Source: a virus (Duplodnaviria > Heunggongvirae > Uroviricota > Caudoviricetes). From it: a stretch of DNA of 17,299 nt. The notes below the pieces were generated by a model that saw only the letters and a program-made list of their open reading frames with translations, made no database searches and was not told the origin of the DNA. Shown here piece after piece: positions 2 to 14,679 of the stretch. Numbering within the stretch: position 1 is the first letter of the stretch; every line of letters begins with the position of its first letter. The stretch covers positions 1-17,299 of the IMG/VR virus record IMGVR_UViG_2531839532_000008; one strand, 5' to 3'. A program made the translations under genes and the position numbers.

Positions 2-568
2 TTAGCCTCTTATCTTGAATTCTGCTATAACTTTGCCGATGAATACAAGGTCATTAATGTTCATATCAACAATGATATTCCCATAGTTAATCTTAACTTT
101 ATTATCAGGAATTCTAATAACTTGTTTTATAGAATGCTTTCCATCAATGGAGATTAACCAATCACCATCAACTACATCTGTGAAATCCCTCTCAATAAAA
201 TAAGAGTTATTCCCGTTTGATATCACAGATGGTGATGATAAACCATCAGGAATGAACACCTTGTCAAACATTAGTGTTCCTGCATCCAATAGCACTCCAT
301 CAATCAATTTTATTTTTTGAATATTGATGATGTCAGAAGTTAAATATTCATGTTTAGGAGGTAAGCCTGTTACCAGCCACTTTATGTTTACTCCTGTTTC
401 GAGCGCGCACTGAATAACCCAATCAGAAGGGAATGAATCTCTCATGTAGCGTGTAGCAAGACTGCTTTTTGATATGCCTAGTTGTTCACATAACGCCTGT
501 CTTGTAGTGAACCCATAGGCTTCAACCATCCTTTCGATAGCTTTCTTTCCACCTTGACTAAAATCCAT
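2..568 (-). CDS. Phage immunity repressor, 186 CI-like (N-terminal HTH plus C-terminal domain)
   Basis: The ORF 2..673 translation contains MDFSQGGKKAIERMVEAYGFTTRQALCEQLGISKSSLATRYMRD...CALETGVNIKWLVTG, which resembles the N-terminal DNA-binding region of 186-type CI repressors. Start chosen at the ATG at 566-568, which has an AAGGTG ribosome-binding site just upstream; the 35 codons further upstream in the ORF are probably not translated. Divergent from a Cox/Apl-like gene. Confidence 0.78.
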   Translation of the reverse strand: MDFSQGGKKAIERMVEAYGFTTRQALCEQLGISKSSLATRYMRDSFPSDWVIQCALETGVNIKWLVTGLPPKHEYLTSDIINIQKIKLIDGVLLDAGTLMFDKVFIPDGLSSPSVISNGNNSYFIERDFTDVVDGDWLISIDGKHSIKQVIRIPDNKVKINYGNIIVDMNINDLVFIGKVIAEFKIRG

Positions 569-3635: not shown

Positions 3636-3844
3636 TGGCGGAAATTATCACCGGCATTTATGCCTTGTTTGCCTGTTTTACTTTCGCCTTTCTCTTATGG
3701 GACGAATGTCAGGATGAATTTGATTACGATGCTGAGGATTTAGGGTTAATCACTCTGAGTGCGGTTCTCTGGCTACCGCTGGTAGCGGTCGTACTTGTGG
3801 CCTTCCTGATTGATTTCTGGGGCAAGTGGGTTAACCGTGGCTGA
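3632..3844 (+). CDS. Small hydrophobic protein, two predicted transmembrane segments, 70 aa
   Basis: The ORF overlaps the Dam stop (ATGATGG). The sequence is dominated by two hydrophobic stretches (IITGIYALFACFTFAFLLW and LITLSAVLWLPLVAVVLVAFLIDFW). Confidence 0.45.
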   Translation: MMAEIITGIYALFACFTFAFLLWDECQDEFDYDAEDLGLITLSAVLWLPLVAVVLVAFLIDFWGKWVNRG

Positions 3845-3845
3845 T

Positions 3846-5861
3846 ATGTTGGAGCCTGGCCAACACCACGCCGTCAATGCCTGGCGGCGTGAAACCTTTG
3901 CGCCTGGCACCCCGTCAGATGCGACGATCACAGAACGTCGCCTGTGGGCTGTTAACCCTCAGGATTACGAATGGCGTTCCCAGTACCTGCATGAGATACC
4001 CGACTGGTTAGCCGGGTATTTTGGCAACCGTTACGAAAAGCTGCTGTCTGGTCGTGACGGGCGTCGCCGTGCCAATACATTCCTGCGCAAGACTATCGGC
4101 GGGAATGTATTGCCACGTCTGCGCAAAGTGGCTGCACGTTACAAGCTGGCCGCTGATGCACTTGATCTTCCTTTCGGTAAGTCGCTGGAGCGACTGCCGT
4201 CACTTGACCGCCCGGACCTCAAAAAACTGGCTGGTCAGATATCTGGCTGGATTTCCCAGTCACTTTATGACTTCACCGATCAGTTTGTGGGCAGCACTGA
4301 CGATGCCGCAGAGCTGCGCCGCCGTACGCTGGAGTCTTACCGCCATTTATGCACATGTTCCCTGATGCTGAACAATCAACCGCCGTACTGGGCAGAGCAT
4401 GAAGCTAATGGCGGGCAACTGGAAACGCGTAAGGCTGAATCCGGGATTCTTCGCATGATGGCACCTGAATGGTGGTATCTGCGTCTTAAGCGAGCGCGTG
4501 ATATGCAGCGTGAGCATATGGCCATTGCCGTGGGGCAGGTACAGAAAGCCGCCAGTGCTTATGTGTCCCGTAAAACCCTGGGCGAATGGATAGACCAGAA
4601 AAAGCGGAACCTTGAGTTCTTCAAAAAGTTTGACCTCCTGAATGATGAAGGGCTGCGTATTGCGCTGGACAGCATGGTGCACCGCAGCGTTGCTAATCCG
4701 GCGATCCGTCGCTGTGAGCTAATGGTAAGAATGAGAGGATTTGAAGATATGGCCAATGAAGAAGGGCTGGCCGGTGAGTTTTACACCATCACTGCGCCAT
4801 CGCGATTCCATGCGGTACACAGCAAAGGGGGCTTTGTTTCACAGTGGGATGGCTGCACCCCGCAGGACACCCAGCGCTACTTATGCGGTGTATGGGCGAA
4901 AGCCCGCGCCGCTATTTCCCGGGCAGGTATCCATGTTTTTGGTTTTCGTGTGGTAGAGCCTCACCACGATGGCACACCGCACTGGCACATGCTGCTTTTT
5001 ATGCGTCCTGGTGACGTGGATACCGTGCGCGATATTCTTTGTTATCACGCCAGAATTACCGACTCCGAAGAACTGCAAACGCCAAACGCGCTAAAGGCAC
5101 GTTTCCATGTTGAAGCCATCGATCCCGCTAAAGGTTCGGCTACGGGTTATATCGCCAAATACATATCCAAAAATATTGATGGATTTGCGCTGGATGGTGA
5201 ACAGGACGACGAAACAGGGGAAAACCTGCGGGATATGGCCAAATCCGTTTCTGCATGGGCTTCACGGTGGCGCATTCGCCAGTTTCAGCAGATTGGTGGT
5301 GCGCCGGTGACTGTCTGGCGCGAGTTGCGCCGGTTGCGTGATCAGGTGCTGACTGACCGCCGAATGGATGCGGTTCTGGCTGCTGCTGATGTTGGGGACT
5401 GGGCTGCATACACCCAGGCGCAGGGTGGCGCACTGGTTGCCCGCCGTGATTTGGTTGTTCGTCTGGCTTATGAAATCACGGAACAGGGTAATGAATACGC
5501 AGAGGACGTGCAGCGTGTTCAGGGTGTCTATTCGCCATTGGTTCCAGATTCAGCGGTATGTACGCGCCTGGTGAAGTGGCAGAAGGTTGCGAAGTTGGCC
5601 GAAGCGCCAGCGGAGGCGGGTTTTTCTGGCGGCAACGCCGCCCCTTGGAGTTCTGTCAATAACTGTACGGAGGGGGGAACCCGCAGACGGTTAAAACTGG
5701 AATTACGCAGTCGGGGTTTTGATGGTTCCGATGAAGAAATAGCCATTCTCCTGCGGGGGAGTGGTTTGATATTTGGTCAGGGGGCACTGATTTACCGTAA
5801 CGGGCGGCTTAAAGAGACTCAAAACGAGCCATTGCAGGAGCTGTGGCCGGGGTGGTTGTAG
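3846..5861 (+). CDS. Replication initiation endonuclease, P2 gpA / 186 A family (HUH rolling-circle initiator)
   Basis: Contains the HUH metal-binding motif (GTPHWHMLLF) and a tyrosine motif (GYIAKYISKNIDG) typical of the P2 A family. Start placed at ATG 3846, one nt after the upstream stop; an in-frame ATG at 3810 and GTG at 3837 are alternatives. Confidence 0.88.
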   Translation: MLEPGQHHAVNAWRRETFAPGTPSDATITERRLWAVNPQDYEWRSQYLHEIPDWLAGYFGNRYEKLLSGRDGRRRANTFLRKTIGGNVLPRLRKVAARYKLAADALDLPFGKSLERLPSLDRPDLKKLAGQISGWISQSLYDFTDQFVGSTDDAAELRRRTLESYRHLCTCSLMLNNQPPYWAEHEANGGQLETRKAESGILRMMAPEWWYLRLKRARDMQREHMAIAVGQVQKAASAYVSRKTLGEWIDQKKRNLEFFKKFDLLNDEGLRIALDSMVHRSVANPAIRRCELMVRMRGFEDMANEEGLAGEFYTITAPSRFHAVHSKGGFVSQWDGCTPQDTQRYLCGVWAKARAAISRAGIHVFGFRVVEPHHDGTPHWHMLLFMRPGDVDTVRDILCYHARITDSEELQTPNALKARFHVEAIDPAKGSATGYIAKYISKNIDGFALDGEQDDETGENLRDMAKSVSAWASRWRIRQFQQIGGAPVTVWRELRRLRDQVLTDRRMDAVLAAADVGDWAAYTQAQGGALVARRDLVVRLAYEITEQGNEYAEDVQRVQGVYSPLVPDSAVCTRLVKWQKVAKLAEAPAEAGFSGGNAAPWSSVNNCTEGGTRRRLKLELRSRGFDGSDEEIAILLRGSGLIFGQGALIYRNGRLKETQNEPLQELWPGWL

Positions 5862-5939
5862 TGGTGTAAGTATGTGAAAGGCATTCATTTGTCAGTAGAT
5901 GGCAGGAAAAAGCACTTTCACATTTTGTGCTTAAATGTA

Positions 5940-5959
5940 TACTGTGTTTATATACAGTT
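5940..5959. promoter_or_regulatory. LexA (SOS) box TACTGTGTTTATATACAGTT
   Basis: Perfect CTGT-N8-ACAG palindrome with an AT-rich centre, matching the E. coli LexA consensus. It overlaps candidate promoter hexamers (TTGTGC ... TATATA) directed rightward. Confidence 0.75.
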
Positions 5960-5982
5960 ATTCTGTTTTTGGGAGGATGCTT

Positions 5983-6195
5983 GTGCAGGATTTGTTTTTG
6001 GAAACTATCGCATTGCAGCGGATTGCGTTGTTTACAAGGCTTATAGCTAAAAGTAATTGCACCGGCTGTGAGAAAGACATAGCACTTGCCTGGCTGAGTG
6101 AACTGACTTCAGATCTGGAAAGTAAGCTCGATGAGTATGAAAACAAAACCCCCAGTAATGGGGGCATTTCAGGCGGCGGGAGTCGTTTTCAGTAG
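5983..6195 (+). CDS. Small LexA-controlled ORF (about 70 aa); candidate SOS-inducible antirepressor by position (186 Tum locus analogue); function unknown
   Basis: ORF immediately downstream of the LexA box, with a GGGAGG ribosome-binding site 6 nt before the GTG at 5983 (in-frame ATG at 5977 is an alternative). The antisense ORF over the same DNA is a low-complexity S/L-rich frame. Its 3' end overlaps the convergent zinc-finger gene by 27 bp. Confidence 0.4.
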   Translation: MQDLFLETIALQRIALFTRLIAKSNCTGCEKDIALAWLSELTSDLESKLDEYENKTPSNGGISGGGSRFQ

Positions 6196-6492
6196 GTCTA
6201 ATGCCATCTGGCGCTGATCGGGTGAAAGTGCATTCAGTATTTTTTGCACCATCGCATCACCCGTTTTAGCGCTGGGGCTGAGAGTGTGGGAGAACGTCAG
6301 ATTCATAACAAACGTGTGGCCACACTCAACATCTGAACAGGCACAGTAAATATCGGCAATCTGCCGGTGCTTCCGGTTCGTTTTACGAATAACAGCCTTT
6401 GAGCCGCATTCCGGGCATTCGATTTTCAGAACTCGCATATTCCATGCTCCAGCTGTTAAATGATGCCTGGATTTTAGCCTGTTTCGCCTCAT
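6169..6492 (-). CDS. Ogr/Delta-family zinc-finger protein (candidate late-gene transcriptional activator)
   Basis: CPEC-x22-CSDVEC-GHTF matches the Ogr/Delta signature C-x2-C-x22-C-x4-C-x2-TF. The ATG at 6492 overlaps the portal stop (ATGA), suggesting translational coupling; an internal ATG at 6438 with a GGAG ribosome-binding site is an alternative start. Confidence 0.75.
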   Translation of the reverse strand: MRRNRLKSRHHLTAGAWNMRVLKIECPECGSKAVIRKTNRKHRQIADIYCACSDVECGHTFVMNLTFSHTLSPSAKTGDAMVQKILNALSPDQRQMALDLLKTTPAA

Positions 6493-9484: not shown

Positions 9485-10285
9485 ATGTCGCATTTAAAAA
9501 CTGACTGGCTGTGTGTTGCCACAGAAGGCGATACGGTTGATGGCAGGGTCATGGAACGGCAATGGATTATTGACATGGGGGAAACCTATGATGTCACCCA
9601 TTACGCCGCACTAATCTGGCCTGAACATGAACGATATGCCGGTAATTTTGGCGAAGTGCTAAAGGCGATGTGGCAGGACGGGGAAGATGGGCTGGCACGA
9701 TTATATGTGAGCCTGTGTCCTAACAAGCGCCTGTTGTATGCCAATGATGAAGGGCAGTTGCTTTATTTCTCTGTTGAGCCAGAACTTAACTGGCGCGGAG
9801 GTGAGCGAACGTATCTGGGCGGACTGGCCGTAACGGACAATCCCGCCAGTGTGGGCACTACACGGTTGCGCTTTAGTCGGCGCAGACTATCAAAACAGGG
9901 ATATTACAGTTGCGTAATTTCCCGTGACGGAAAAATTAAGCAGGAAGAACTGATGAAAAAAACCTGGCACCATTTATTTGGCATTAAGCCAAAGTTTGAA
10001 AGCGAAGGTCAGCAGGATGATACGCAGCAGGGTGATGATAAATTGCAGGCGCTTGCGAATGCTGTTAACGATCTGGAAGCACGAGGGGGGGCAATTGAAA
10101 AACAACTGAGCACGGTTCAGGAAGATGTGGATACTATTGTTGAAGTTGTGGACACGGAAGAGTTTGCGACCATTCGCGATAATGCGAAAGAAATCGTAAC
10201 ACGCTTTAACGATCTGGGTAATAAGAATACCCGCTCACCGGGGCGTAAAATTTCAGAAAAAGCCGGGAAATATAATTTTCTGTAA
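9485..10285 (+). CDS. Capsid scaffolding protein (P2 gpO-like)
   Basis: 266 aa ORF, first gene of the rightward head operon, with an AGGGGGG ribosome-binding site. Acidic, coiled-coil-like C-terminal half. Position and size match P2 O. Confidence 0.78.
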   Translation: MSHLKTDWLCVATEGDTVDGRVMERQWIIDMGETYDVTHYAALIWPEHERYAGNFGEVLKAMWQDGEDGLARLYVSLCPNKRLLYANDEGQLLYFSVEPELNWRGGERTYLGGLAVTDNPASVGTTRLRFSRRRLSKQGYYSCVISRDGKIKQEELMKKTWHHLFGIKPKFESEGQQDDTQQGDDKLQALANAVNDLEARGGAIEKQLSTVQEDVDTIVEVVDTEEFATIRDNAKEIVTRFNDLGNKNTRSPGRKISEKAGKYNFL

Positions 10286-11374: not shown

Positions 11375-11890
11375 ATGGCACTTTCCCCCGCGCAGCGTCA
11401 CAGCCAGCGTATTGCAATGGAACAAAAGCTGAAGCGCAGCCAGGCACTGGAAACCACAGAAAGTATGCATCTGCTGATCAGGGCGCTGGAAAAGGATGTG
11501 GAACACGTTCGAAGTCTGCCTACCATCGCCGATCGCGTCGAATATAAACGCGATGTGCTGTTGCCGCGCTGGGTTCCTACTGTGGAAGGGACTACCACGT
11601 CAGCACCGGCTAATGCCTGGCAAAAATGGAATGGTAAGGCGTGGGTGGATGATGCGGAGGCCATGCGAACTGCATTGGTCAGCGAGGCAGACGCCGAAAA
11701 GAAAAGCCTGCTTAAACAGGCCAATGATGCCATTGCCACATTGCAGGATGCCGTTGATTTAGACATGGCGACCGAAGAAGAAGCACTCCTGCTTATCGCA
11801 TGGAAAAAATACCGCGTTTTACTGAATCGTATTCAACCGGAAGATGCGCCGGAAATTGTGTGGCCGGAGGTGCCTGGAAATGTGGCGTGA
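11375..11890 (+). CDS. Terminase small (endonuclease) subunit, P2 gpM-like
   Basis: N-terminus MALSPAQRHSQRIA parallels the P2 M N-terminus (SPAQRH motif). It immediately follows the capsid gene, as in P2. Confidence 0.75.
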   Translation: MALSPAQRHSQRIAMEQKLKRSQALETTESMHLLIRALEKDVEHVRSLPTIADRVEYKRDVLLPRWVPTVEGTTTSAPANAWQKWNGKAWVDDAEAMRTALVSEADAEKKSLLKQANDAIATLQDAVDLDMATEEEALLLIAWKKYRVLLNRIQPEDAPEIVWPEVPGNVA

Positions 11891-12605
11891 AGCACGTCTG
11901 GCCTTCACGGATTCTGTTGCTGCGCTGAACTGTTCGATCGTCCCTGCGCATCCGTGGATTTATGGGCTGGGACAGCAGACAGCGAACGGGGCATATCTCA
12001 GCCCGGTTAATGCCGTTCGCTATCTTGCTGAACGCCTGGCCGGAACAGGTGGGAATGTGGACGTGGTGATTATGATGGTCACCGGACAGACGCAGGAAAA
12101 CTTTATGGCCAGTCTGAATAACCTGGTCGGGATTTTCCCCGCCCCGGCATTCACACAGGTCAAACGGCTGGCGCAATCCGCCGCAGCGTTGGCTATTGAA
12201 AAGATGCAGATCCCGGCGAAAGCCGCCGCAGCGTTACCTGCGTCCATTCCGCTGTCTGTACCAACCAGCAGGGCAGCTTTATCTGCTGCGGCAATCAGCC
12301 AGGCACAAAAGGCGGCGGGTGCCGGGTTTGATATCGAAGGGCTGAAAAAACAGCTGGGCGAGTTCACGCAGCTGCGTGACCAGCTTATCAGTGATGTGGC
12401 CAGCGGCCTGAATGATTTACAGGGGAAAAGTGCCAGAGCGTGGGTTTTTACTGCCAGCGGAGACACCGGTACCACGTTACTGGAACTGGTGAAGGACATT
12501 CCGCAGCAGTCTGCCGTTTACACCGCAGCCATGATGCTGGTTGGCGATAATCTTGATGGAATAAAGGGAATGATTCATGACTTCGATCCCGACACTGGCG
12601 CTTAA
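11880..12605 (+). CDS. Late-operon hypothetical protein, 241 aa, Ala-rich central region (occupies the position of head completion gene L)
   Basis: Start placed at ATG 11880 with a GGAGGTG ribosome-binding site; it overlaps the upstream stop (ATGTGGCGTGA). No recognisable motif. Confidence 0.55.
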   Translation: MWREARLAFTDSVAALNCSIVPAHPWIYGLGQQTANGAYLSPVNAVRYLAERLAGTGGNVDVVIMMVTGQTQENFMASLNNLVGIFPAPAFTQVKRLAQSAAALAIEKMQIPAKAAAALPASIPLSVPTSRAALSAAAISQAQKAAGAGFDIEGLKKQLGEFTQLRDQLISDVASGLNDLQGKSARAWVFTASGDTGTTLLELVKDIPQQSAVYTAAMMLVGDNLDGIKGMIHDFDPDTGA

Positions 12606-13122
12606 TGGCGAGGCCATCCAGCTGAAAAACATGCGGGTGACTGTTTCACAGCAGTTTCAGGATAAAGATCAGTCCGGCCAGACCAGCGCCACAACAAAAT
12701 CAGAGCAGGGGGCAAAGGGAAAGGAACTGCGGATCAGCGGTGAAATCCCTTTTAAACAGCCTGAAATACTGAAGCGTATTTTTGAGCTGGCCAGTGCTAC
12801 CGATGCCAGTGGTAATCGTCAGAAGTACCGCGTGGCGCATGAAGTTGCCCGTGCTGTTAATTTTCGTGAAGCAACGTTTAGCGGAATGCTGGATGCACCA
12901 CAGCAGGACGGAAAAATGTCCTGGCTGGTGACATTCACACTGGCGGAACATATCAGCGTGCAGGAAAAGCGAGAGGCAAGGGCAACAGGTAAGACGACCG
13001 CAAAAAAACAGACTGCCAGTAGTGCGGGACAGTCCGGTGGTCAGTCTGCCGGAGAAGATGAAGAAAAACTGACGTGGTTTGAACGCAAGGTGCTGAAGCC
13101 CGTCAATGATGCTTTGGGTTAA
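12577..13122 (+). CDS. Late-operon hypothetical protein, 181 aa
   Basis: ORF with an AAGGGA ribosome-binding site; it overlaps the upstream gene by 29 nt. Gly/Ser/Gln-rich acidic C-terminus. Unassigned. Confidence 0.55.
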   Translation: MTSIPTLALNGEAIQLKNMRVTVSQQFQDKDQSGQTSATTKSEQGAKGKELRISGEIPFKQPEILKRIFELASATDASGNRQKYRVAHEVARAVNFREATFSGMLDAPQQDGKMSWLVTFTLAEHISVQEKREARATGKTTAKKQTASSAGQSGGQSAGEDEEKLTWFERKVLKPVNDALG

Positions 13123-14090
13123 TGATGAAACCAGTAAAACGCCTTTACCTTTCAACGGATGAAGTTCACCTGGTGGATGCCAGCCTGGTACTGGAGCTGA
13201 ACAGCTGCGGCCGGGGCTTCATCACCGCAGAGACAACAACCGATTACACCGGAAAACTGGTGCGGCTGGATGTGGGGTATACCGATCTGCTTTTGCGCTG
13301 GTTTACGGGGTATGCGGAGCGATCGCAGCCCGCTGAAAACGGTTTTCAGCGTCTGTTCATTCGTGAACTGGTTGGTGTGTTTGAAAGGATGTGGCCATGT
13401 TCGTTTCAACACCCGACTTTGCGTGAAATTGCGGGCTGGCTGGAAGAAAACAGCGGGATCACGGTCAGTGTGCCTGACACACAGTACAGCGATACCCCCA
13501 TCCCACATTTTACCCATAACGGTACTGGTTATCAGTTGCTGAACAATCTGGGCAGGTCGTTCAGTATCCAGGATTACATCTGGTACCAGTTGCCTGATGG
13601 TTCGCTTTACGTCGGCGGCGCAGAAAAGTCATTGTTTGCCGGTCGTCCCGTAGAAATCCCGTCAGAGTTCAGCCAGGGTGCTGCTGGCGGTAACTCTGTG
13701 ACATTACCAGTGATCCAGACTATGCGGCCAGGGGTGGAGATGAACGGTGAACGCGTGACTAAAGTTCACCTGACTAATGACACGATGGCGATCACATGGA
13801 CGCCGAGAAACCGCGCAACGGGTAAACCTTTGCAGAAAACACCGGCGCAACGGCAGATTGAAAGCCATTACCCGGAACTGGCATCCGGGCTTCATTTGCC
13901 AAAGATGGCCAGAGTCGTGGCGCATTCAGAGCCGGTAAAAAGCGGTAACTTTGCCGATCCCTTCCGGCCACGTTACGCCGTGGACGTGCAGCTGCTTGAC
14001 GCAGACGGAAACCCTATGGTGATGCCTTGCTTCAGGTCGGCGAAATCACCAATCACGCAATTGTCAGTAATAACAATACCGTTCAGATGA
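13122..14090 (+). CDS. Late-operon hypothetical protein, 322 aa; its C-terminus probably derives from read-through across the element junction
   Basis: TAATG overlap with the upstream gene. The last roughly 24-40 codons are antisense to a conserved hexapeptide acetyltransferase segment, so the native C-terminus may have been lost. Confidence 0.5.
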   Translation: MMKPVKRLYLSTDEVHLVDASLVLELNSCGRGFITAETTTDYTGKLVRLDVGYTDLLLRWFTGYAERSQPAENGFQRLFIRELVGVFERMWPCSFQHPTLREIAGWLEENSGITVSVPDTQYSDTPIPHFTHNGTGYQLLNNLGRSFSIQDYIWYQLPDGSLYVGGAEKSLFAGRPVEIPSEFSQGAAGGNSVTLPVIQTMRPGVEMNGERVTKVHLTNDTMAITWTPRNRATGKPLQKTPAQRQIESHYPELASGLHLPKMARVVAHSEPVKSGNFADPFRPRYAVDVQLLDADGNPMVMPCFRSAKSPITQLSVITIPFR

Positions 14091-14356
14091 GCAATGTTTA
14101 AACCCTTGCCAATTTTGCATGACAGAGAAATATCAACGCTGTGCCGGTACTTGAGGCGGTTTTCAATCCTGCGGGCAATGCGCTTTTTGAACTTGCTATT
14201 CTGACCATAGAGCCATGAAGCAATACGCCACCAGAACAGGAAGTGCTTCTTCTGGTTGCGTCGGGTACGAAGTAACGCTTTACGCCATGAAAAGGATTTG
14301 TCATGGCCAATGACTTCAAGGCGGATACATTCTTTAAGTTGGTCGTAGGAAGTCAT
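13973..14356 (-). pseudogene. Truncated hexapeptide-repeat acetyltransferase (WcaB/CysE-like), N-terminal fragment
   Basis: Translation shows left-handed beta-helix hexapeptide repeats (ISLSCKIGKGLNIAHLNGIVITDNCVIGDFADLKQGITIG). Similarity stops abruptly near 14018 and the frame ends in a non-homologous tail, where a full-length enzyme would continue with further repeats. Confidence 0.6.
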
Positions 14357-14679
14357 GATTAGTCATCCTGACAAGAAAAAAAGGGATTTTAAATCAATAC
14401 GATTTTTAGACAATGGTTTTCGTTGTGGGAAGGAGGGACTTTAGTTGTGTCGCCACTTTGTCGCCAAGCATGGGAAATGGTTGGTGTAATCTATTGATTT
14501 CATGGGTTGAAAAATTCAGGCAACAAAAAACCCATCAACCTTGAACCGAAATGGCGGGGGTGATGGGCTCCACAAAATGGGGACATCAAAGAAAAGCAGT
14601 GGCACTAATTAAGACTGATGCCCTGCGGAAAAGTTCTGCGGTTGTGCAAAAAAATTTCATTTTCAGGGCAACTTCAGTT

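Follow-up and report, generated by a model that had tools for sequence, protein, structure and literature searches.

A short open reading frame (ORF) preceded by a LexA (SOS) box, located downstream of the replication gene of a P2/186-like prophage, raises the question of what its product would do upon DNA damage: disarm the immunity repressor of the element, as Tum does in phage 186, or act as an SOS effector of another kind. We addressed this question in a 17,299-nt stretch of DNA, hereafter the window, which comprises the right-hand two thirds of a P2/186-like (Peduoviridae) prophage and flanking E. coli genes. Taken together, the evidence argues that this region serves a 186-like (Peduoviridae) prophage as its SOS-induction module, with a TumA-type antirepressor gene under LexA, a reading to which we assign a probability of roughly 0.85.

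The prophage genes in the window are arranged rightwards in the order CI, apl/cox (695–916), cII (949–1452), DNA methylase, gene A (gpA, 3810–5861; Pfam Phage_GPA, E 9e-104), the small ORF, ogr, portal Q, terminase P, O and N, with Q and P on the minus strand. The ORF lies 121 nt past gene A. Its other neighbor is the ogr/delta-type zinc-finger late-gene activator (6169–6492, minus strand; Pfam Ogr_Delta, E 9e-20; phrog_603), which adjoins Q and belongs to the surroundings of the SOS module, not to the module itself. The original prediction, made from the letters alone, had placed the ORF between the replication gene and the packaging operon; the first neighbor is correct, but the ORF is not directly adjacent to the packaging genes because ogr intervenes. 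The 334 bases around the module are 100% identical to E. coli 300709 (NZ_CP025903.1), where they lie between rcdA and ybjL, and 98.8–99.7% identical to the Escherichia phages ESSI2_ev129, ev040 and ev015 (genus Quadragintavirus), in whose records the homologous ORF is labeled "hypothetical protein". The DuoHS prophage of E. coli HS sits at the same rcdA–ybjL locus. On its right side, the prophage borders directly on the small RNA gene rybB (14522–14600, minus strand; Rfam RF00110, 100 bits); as phage homology stops at 14535, the 3′ end of rybB and the attachment site appear to overlap. In E. coli 300709, the region immediately to the left of the window (L088 12406–14139) has genes for an AAA-family ATPase and a DUF4276 protein between the integrase and CI, a position that often holds anti-phage defense cargo in P2-like phages; both are absent from ESSI2_ev129.

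The LexA box, TACTGTGTTTATATACAGTT, occupies positions 5940–5959 and was assigned to neither strand; the call relies on its excess over chance and on the conservation of its arms among clade representatives. It agrees at 17 of 20 positions (hand count) with the textbook E. coli consensus, TACTGTATATATATACAGTA, and shares with E. coli LexA operators the palindrome, the AT-rich spacer and the location over promoter elements. Whereas shuffled sequences predict 0.15 CTGT-N8-ACAG matches for the window, two are present, and the extended form TACTGT-N8-ACAGT occurs once in the window and in none of the 200 shuffled sequences. The second of the two matches, CTGTGTGTTGCCACAG at 9509–9524, near the start of the scaffold gene O (gpO), is probably a chance occurrence because its spacer is GC-rich and the TA/T flanks are missing.

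Upstream of the box, the hexamer TTCACA (5917–5922, plus strand) is identical to the annotated −35 element of the 186 promoter p95. The predicted −10 region (5938–5945, plus strand), read by eye and compared with the 186 annotation, can be drawn either as TATACT (5938–5943), 15 nt from the −35 element, or as TACTGT (5940–5945), with a 17-nt spacer, the latter being the assignment made for p95; both options overlap the LexA box. A generic sigma-70 promoter scan called no promoter. Eighteen distinct upstream sequences nevertheless retain TTCACA or TTTACA as the −35 element, 17–18 nt 5′ of the box. Downstream, a Shine-Dalgarno (SD) element, GGGAGG (5971–5976, plus strand), is positioned 6 nt before a GTG codon at 5983, and a purine-rich SD is conserved across the homologous loci; an Rfam search detected no known RNA family in the intergenic region. 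The perfect SOS box, the rightward promoter overlapping it (predicted here as TTCACA-17 nt-TACTGT) and the ribosome-binding site followed by an ORF of about 70 codons, all parts of the original prediction, are thus borne out. From this arrangement, we infer that LexA binds the 5940–5959 box and that transcription from it is SOS-dependent.

The gene itself, tumA-like (5983–6195, plus strand), encodes 70 residues and was identified by a match to PHROG family phrog_698 (E 7e-18), by its coding signal and by homology to 186 Tum. The frame is open from ATG 5935, which would give 86 residues, and the conserved start is GTG 5983, which lines up with the first residue of every homologue. The codon at 5935 is just 5′ of the box and therefore 5′ of the likely transcription start, and the 72-residue form from ATG 5977, chosen by PGAP, has zero SD spacing and an ATG that is out of frame in two related loci (L016 and L017). 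Given that both upstream codons are implausible and that the alignment favors GTG 5983, we take the product to be the 70-residue form. Another rejected candidate, an antisense ORF of 69 codons (5958–6167), has no family match and gains stop codons in diverged homologues. Relative to the homologue at locus L008, substitutions are concentrated at third codon positions (5/2/19 by position), and 15 codon changes are synonymous and 6 non-synonymous; by this pattern, the plus-strand frame is a gene under purifying selection at the protein level.

A phmmer search of 1.84 billion representative proteins retrieved 54 clusters, almost all of 47–123 residues, which defines a small family of stand-alone proteins; fused 146-residue Tum proteins were not reached in this whole-library search with a single-sequence query. 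The AlphaFold model, based on a 38-sequence alignment, is a two-helix hairpin (helices 5–23 and 28–55; pLDDT 83.9, and above 90 for residues 11–50), in which residues 1–55 form the conserved core and residues 56–70 a glycine-rich, low-confidence tail that is disordered in the model. Searches for known domains and structures were uninformative: Pfam returned sub-threshold noise only (zf_C2HC_14, 15 bits against a 25-bit cut-off), NCBIfam and a PDB sequence search gave no match, and every Foldseek match in the PDB was a generic helical hairpin with E above 1.

By direct BLASTP, the ORF aligns with neither 186 Tum nor PSP3 TumA, which accounts for the impression, on first inspection of the sequence, that the product has no similarity to Tum; the evidence for homology consequently comes from profiles and intermediate sequences. 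A family HMM built from 24 distinct members, with Tum left out, recovered the 186 tum ORF at E 1.2e-7 among 14,689 ORFs, the next non-family match being at E 0.63. In hhalign, the 38-member alignment matched 186 Tum with 95.7% probability (E 8.7e-9) over residues 4–46 of both proteins, and PSP3 TumA appeared weakly related (39%). An unannotated homologue in Yersinia phage vB_YenM_324 bridges the two: it shares 36% identity with the window ORF (tblastn E 2e-6) and aligns with the first 61 residues of 186 Tum at 44% identity (BLASTP E 2e-13). Finally, the N-terminus of Tum matches phrog_698, phrog_8554 and phrog_1993, the last being the family of PSP3 TumA. Thus, as judged from these four lines of sequence comparison, the ORF is homologous to the N-terminal, antirepressor half of 186 Tum and stands alone as a gene ("TumA").

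The DinI-like C-terminal half of Tum has no counterpart here, and this is why the ORF is shorter than Tum. None of three DinI/TumB queries gave a tblastn match in the window, the whole prophage (L088) or the whole ESSI2_ev129 genome, and the positive control, DuoHS, was detected at E 4e-20. The ORF itself has no DinI match in Pfam, NCBIfam or PHROGs, and its predicted fold is the two-helix hairpin. At the 22 ogr-adjacent loci, DinI-like sequence is missing throughout, in contrast to the majority of Fels-2-type loci, where it follows 10 nt downstream. The original prediction therefore described correctly a product much shorter than Tum (70 versus 146 residues) and unlike DinI. Its view that the product lacks recognizable similarity to Tum, and its suggestion of a distinct SOS-triggered effector, give way to the homology with the N-terminal half of Tum; the profile search and structure prediction that it had proposed supplied that homology and the helical hairpin. 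The other option that it had named, an antirepressor, is the best reading by homology to Tum and to the tum gene of DuoHS.

The presumed target of such an antirepressor is encoded at the left edge of the window, where, as had been supposed, the element has a CI-like repressor: a 186-type CI immunity repressor (2–568, minus strand; Phage_CI_repr, PF07022, and Phage_CI_C, PF16452) annotated by PGAP as a 188-aa CDS. It is 30% identical to 186 CI (176 residues) and 47% identical to DuoHS CI. Pfam detects no S24 peptidase domain (Peptidase_S24) in it, and induction would need an antirepressor because 186-type CI has no domain for self-cleavage. That TumA acts on this 186-type CI is suggested by analogy with phage 186.

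We compared TumA and CI types across loci. At two loci (L050 and L060), a CI 100% identical to that of the window is accompanied by a Fels-2-type TumA with 51% identity; conversely, locus L007 has the same TumA core as the window and a CI that is 54% identical in the N-terminal domain and 29% in the C-terminal domain. An identical TumA core is found with CI N-terminal domains that are 53–71% identical, and the similarities of TumA and of the CI N-terminal domain are uncorrelated (Spearman rho −0.14). By these comparisons, TumA and CI types assort independently, which favors broad specificity or a conserved-surface target over tight one-to-one pairing. Specifically, TumA might recognize a conserved surface of 186-type CI and so not be tied to one immunity type, a proposal that we advance tentatively and consider rather improbable as it stands. 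Were it true, a cell entering SOS could have its heteroimmune 186-like prophages induced by the TumA of a single resident element, even if that element were defective, as in the window. Broad, trans-acting antirepression has been shown for Gifsy phages (PMC3121763).

The lack of co-variation with CI type also leaves room for a target other than CI, and the protein could be an SOS effector with a different job, such as modulation of RecA or LexA, inhibition of cell division or exclusion of other phages. No curated family names the protein, and its PHROG families are all of "unknown function". However, the homology covers the region of Tum on which antirepression depends, inhibition of CI binding is annotated in the 186 record for full-length Tum only, and the 51% identity to DuoHS tum links the ORF to a gene required for induction. 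Furthermore, the protein shows no similarity to DinI, and its fold is a plain helical hairpin without an informative structural match. We therefore regard a different function as improbable.

The layout at the 3′ end of the gene suggests a further possibility. The tumA-like gene and ogr are convergent and overlap by 27 nt, which are the last 27 nt of the ORF, and the intrinsic terminator of ogr (6138–6165, minus strand; identified by a terminator scan, with the stem at 6148–6165 followed by a U-run) lies inside the tumA frame. Its fold energy is −13.3 kcal/mol (z −2.7), and the hairpin is present in all ogr-adjacent homologues, including a compensatory CCTCC/GGAGG version at locus L022. Residues 56–70 of the protein are encoded across this terminator and the 3′ end of ogr, and the conserved "NP..GG" motif of the tail arises because the hairpin lies in frame; the tail of TumA has thus probably been shaped by the DNA of the opposite strand and not by protein function. 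On the plus strand, the hairpin is not followed by a U-run and so makes no good terminator past the ORF; the scan of this strand found no clear terminator until a weak candidate at 6363–6377, within ogr. The SOS transcript may consequently run antisense into ogr.

The main output of the promoter could then be the RNA, transcribed head-on into ogr and the Q–P late genes and acting by antisense or interference, with the peptide secondary. The transcript must overlap the 3′ end and the terminator of ogr (6138–6195), it meets no good terminator directly past the ORF, and the convergent layout is kept throughout the ogr-adjacent clade. Nonetheless, the frame is clearly under protein-level selection, and the same protein family is found in Fels-2-type phages that lack a convergent ogr. 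Antisense effects could add to those of the protein, but nothing requires them, and we consider RNA as the main output quite unlikely. In the ogr-adjacent clade, the LexA-driven transcript might also interfere with the convergent late activator.

For the TumA-type reading, conservation of the operator is a further line of evidence. The locus set consisted of 80 IMG/VR loci encoding relatives and of phage-record loci carrying a homologue; the alignment that included PSP3 TumA and 186 Tum (A1) was too diverse for the locus search, and alignment A2 was used. Across 85 related loci, with the window itself left out, the box is found 38–64 nt 5′ of the start codon as a perfect CTGT-N8-ACAG in 80 and with one mismatch in three, and the two loci without it are one truncated and one rearranged locus. 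The perfect boxes comprise 19 distinct sequences. Among the eight representatives of the ogr-adjacent clade, 11 box-arm positions are 100% conserved, and the box spacer has a mean column identity of 75%, compared with about 52–55% for the remaining intergenic DNA. The box thus leaves a clear phylogenetic footprint, which points to an operator under selection. Fels-2/DuoHS-type loci contain an imperfect box-like element about 15 nt past the LexA box, for example GTGGTTATACATACAGTA (L087 9556–9600). This second element is conserved across many such loci and may be an additional LexA site; the window has no equivalent.

By comparison with intact ESSI2_ev129, the window prophage is a defective deletion remnant, as seen at 11375–14535. 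About 11.5 kb, encoding head completion, tail sheath and tube, lysis, tape measure, baseplate and tail fiber functions, is missing, and the deletion joins the first ~76 residues of gpM (small terminase) to a tail-fiber-assembly protein, forming a chimeric ORF (11375–11890). The 'baseplate protein' ORF (13122–14090) has been cut short by another deletion, of about 1.7 kb. With some 13 kb of tail, lysis and baseplate genes lost, the palindrome and the ORF might be chance features or a decayed, functionless relic, but this is very improbable, since the module differs from that of intact ESSI2_ev129 by 1 base in 334 nt, the sole change in the ORF is synonymous, and the box, unexpected by chance, is conserved at 83 of 85 loci.

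The antirepressor reading leads to the following scheme, in which the binding steps, including the interaction of the protein with CI, are proposed by analogy. In an undamaged cell, host LexA would occupy the 5940–5959 box, overlapping the −10 element of the p95-type promoter, and keep the promoter shut. DNA damage would activate RecA, LexA would cleave itself, and the promoter would fire, allowing the 70-residue, two-helix TumA to be made from GTG 5983. TumA would then bind the non-self-cleaving 186-type CI, which would come off its operators and stop holding the lytic promoter. In the window prophage, induction cannot yield virions because the prophage is a deletion remnant.

The module is an ordinary, previously unannotated, short and DinI-less member of the known Tum system and brings no new mechanism. 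RefSeq, PGAP and PHROGs (phrog_698, 8554 and 1993) label the gene and its relatives "hypothetical protein" or "unknown function"; they can be named as Tum-type SOS antirepressors, and this naming predicts that DNA damage induces the many P2/186-like prophages with such a gene in Escherichia, Salmonella, Klebsiella, Cronobacter and Yersinia. The DinI half appears dispensable in a whole clade. The independent assortment of TumA and CI bears on the cross-induction of co-resident prophages and, alone among the observations, would allow for a novel feature, namely, broad antirepression acting in trans.

In the Gifsy phages (GfoA and GftA) and in N15 (AntC), a non-cleavable repressor is inactivated by the small product of a LexA-repressed gene (PMC3121763), as proposed for the window. 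We found no sequence relationship between these proteins and the window ORF, and GfoA, GftA and AntC act on other repressor families in lambdoid or N15-type phages.

The closest parallels are in the 186 group, where a tum-type gene directly 3′ of gene A is common to the window, 186, Fels-2, PSP3 and DuoHS. The correspondence with the LexA-controlled tum locus of 186, drawn already in the original prediction, rests on this shared position, on the p95-like promoter and on the homologous product. Both loci have a TTCACA −35 element, a LexA box over the −10 element, GGAGG and a GTG start, and both phages have a 186-type CI as repressor class. In p95, the spacer is 18 nt and the −10 element, TACTGT, is formed by the first six bases of the LexA box, compared with a 17-nt spacer in the window. 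As reported for 186 by Shearwin et al. 1998 (cited in PMC3121763), Tum binds CI and prevents operator binding, and its gene is required for SOS induction. Tum of 186 has 146 residues, its C-terminal half is DinI-like, and DinI-like products are made from internal starts, whereas the window protein has 70 residues and no DinI part; according to the 186 record, full-length Tum inhibits DNA binding by CI, and the shorter DinI-like internal products modulate SOS induction. Furthermore, tum is followed by orf97 in 186, whereas the window has no orf97 and its gene converges on ogr.

The split-tum phages PSP3 (TumA/TumB), Fels-2 and DuoHS resemble the window in that they encode stand-alone homologues of the N-terminal part of Tum, 60–62 residues long, behind a LexA box. 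Lemire et al. (PMC3121763) describe tum of Fels-2 and PSP3 as split by a stop codon, with the upstream gene of PSP3 carrying the antirepressor activity. These loci differ from the window in having a DinI-like tumB 10 nt downstream, of which the window has none, and in the distance from the box to the start codon (58–64 nt before ATG, compared with 41 nt before GTG); the window protein has, in addition, a glycine-rich tail. Fels-2 STM2728 (62 residues) is 51% identical to the window ORF over 53 residues. The same identity over 53 residues is found for ECHS_RS04495 of E. coli HS, which lies behind the same kind of LexA box, encodes 62 residues, is followed by a DinI-like gene and goes by the name tum in the Phollow study; like the window ORF, the Fels-2 and DuoHS proteins belong to phrog_698. 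DuoHS is no longer induced by mitomycin C when tum is deleted in frame or in the presence of a lexA(Ind-) allele (PMC12055606).
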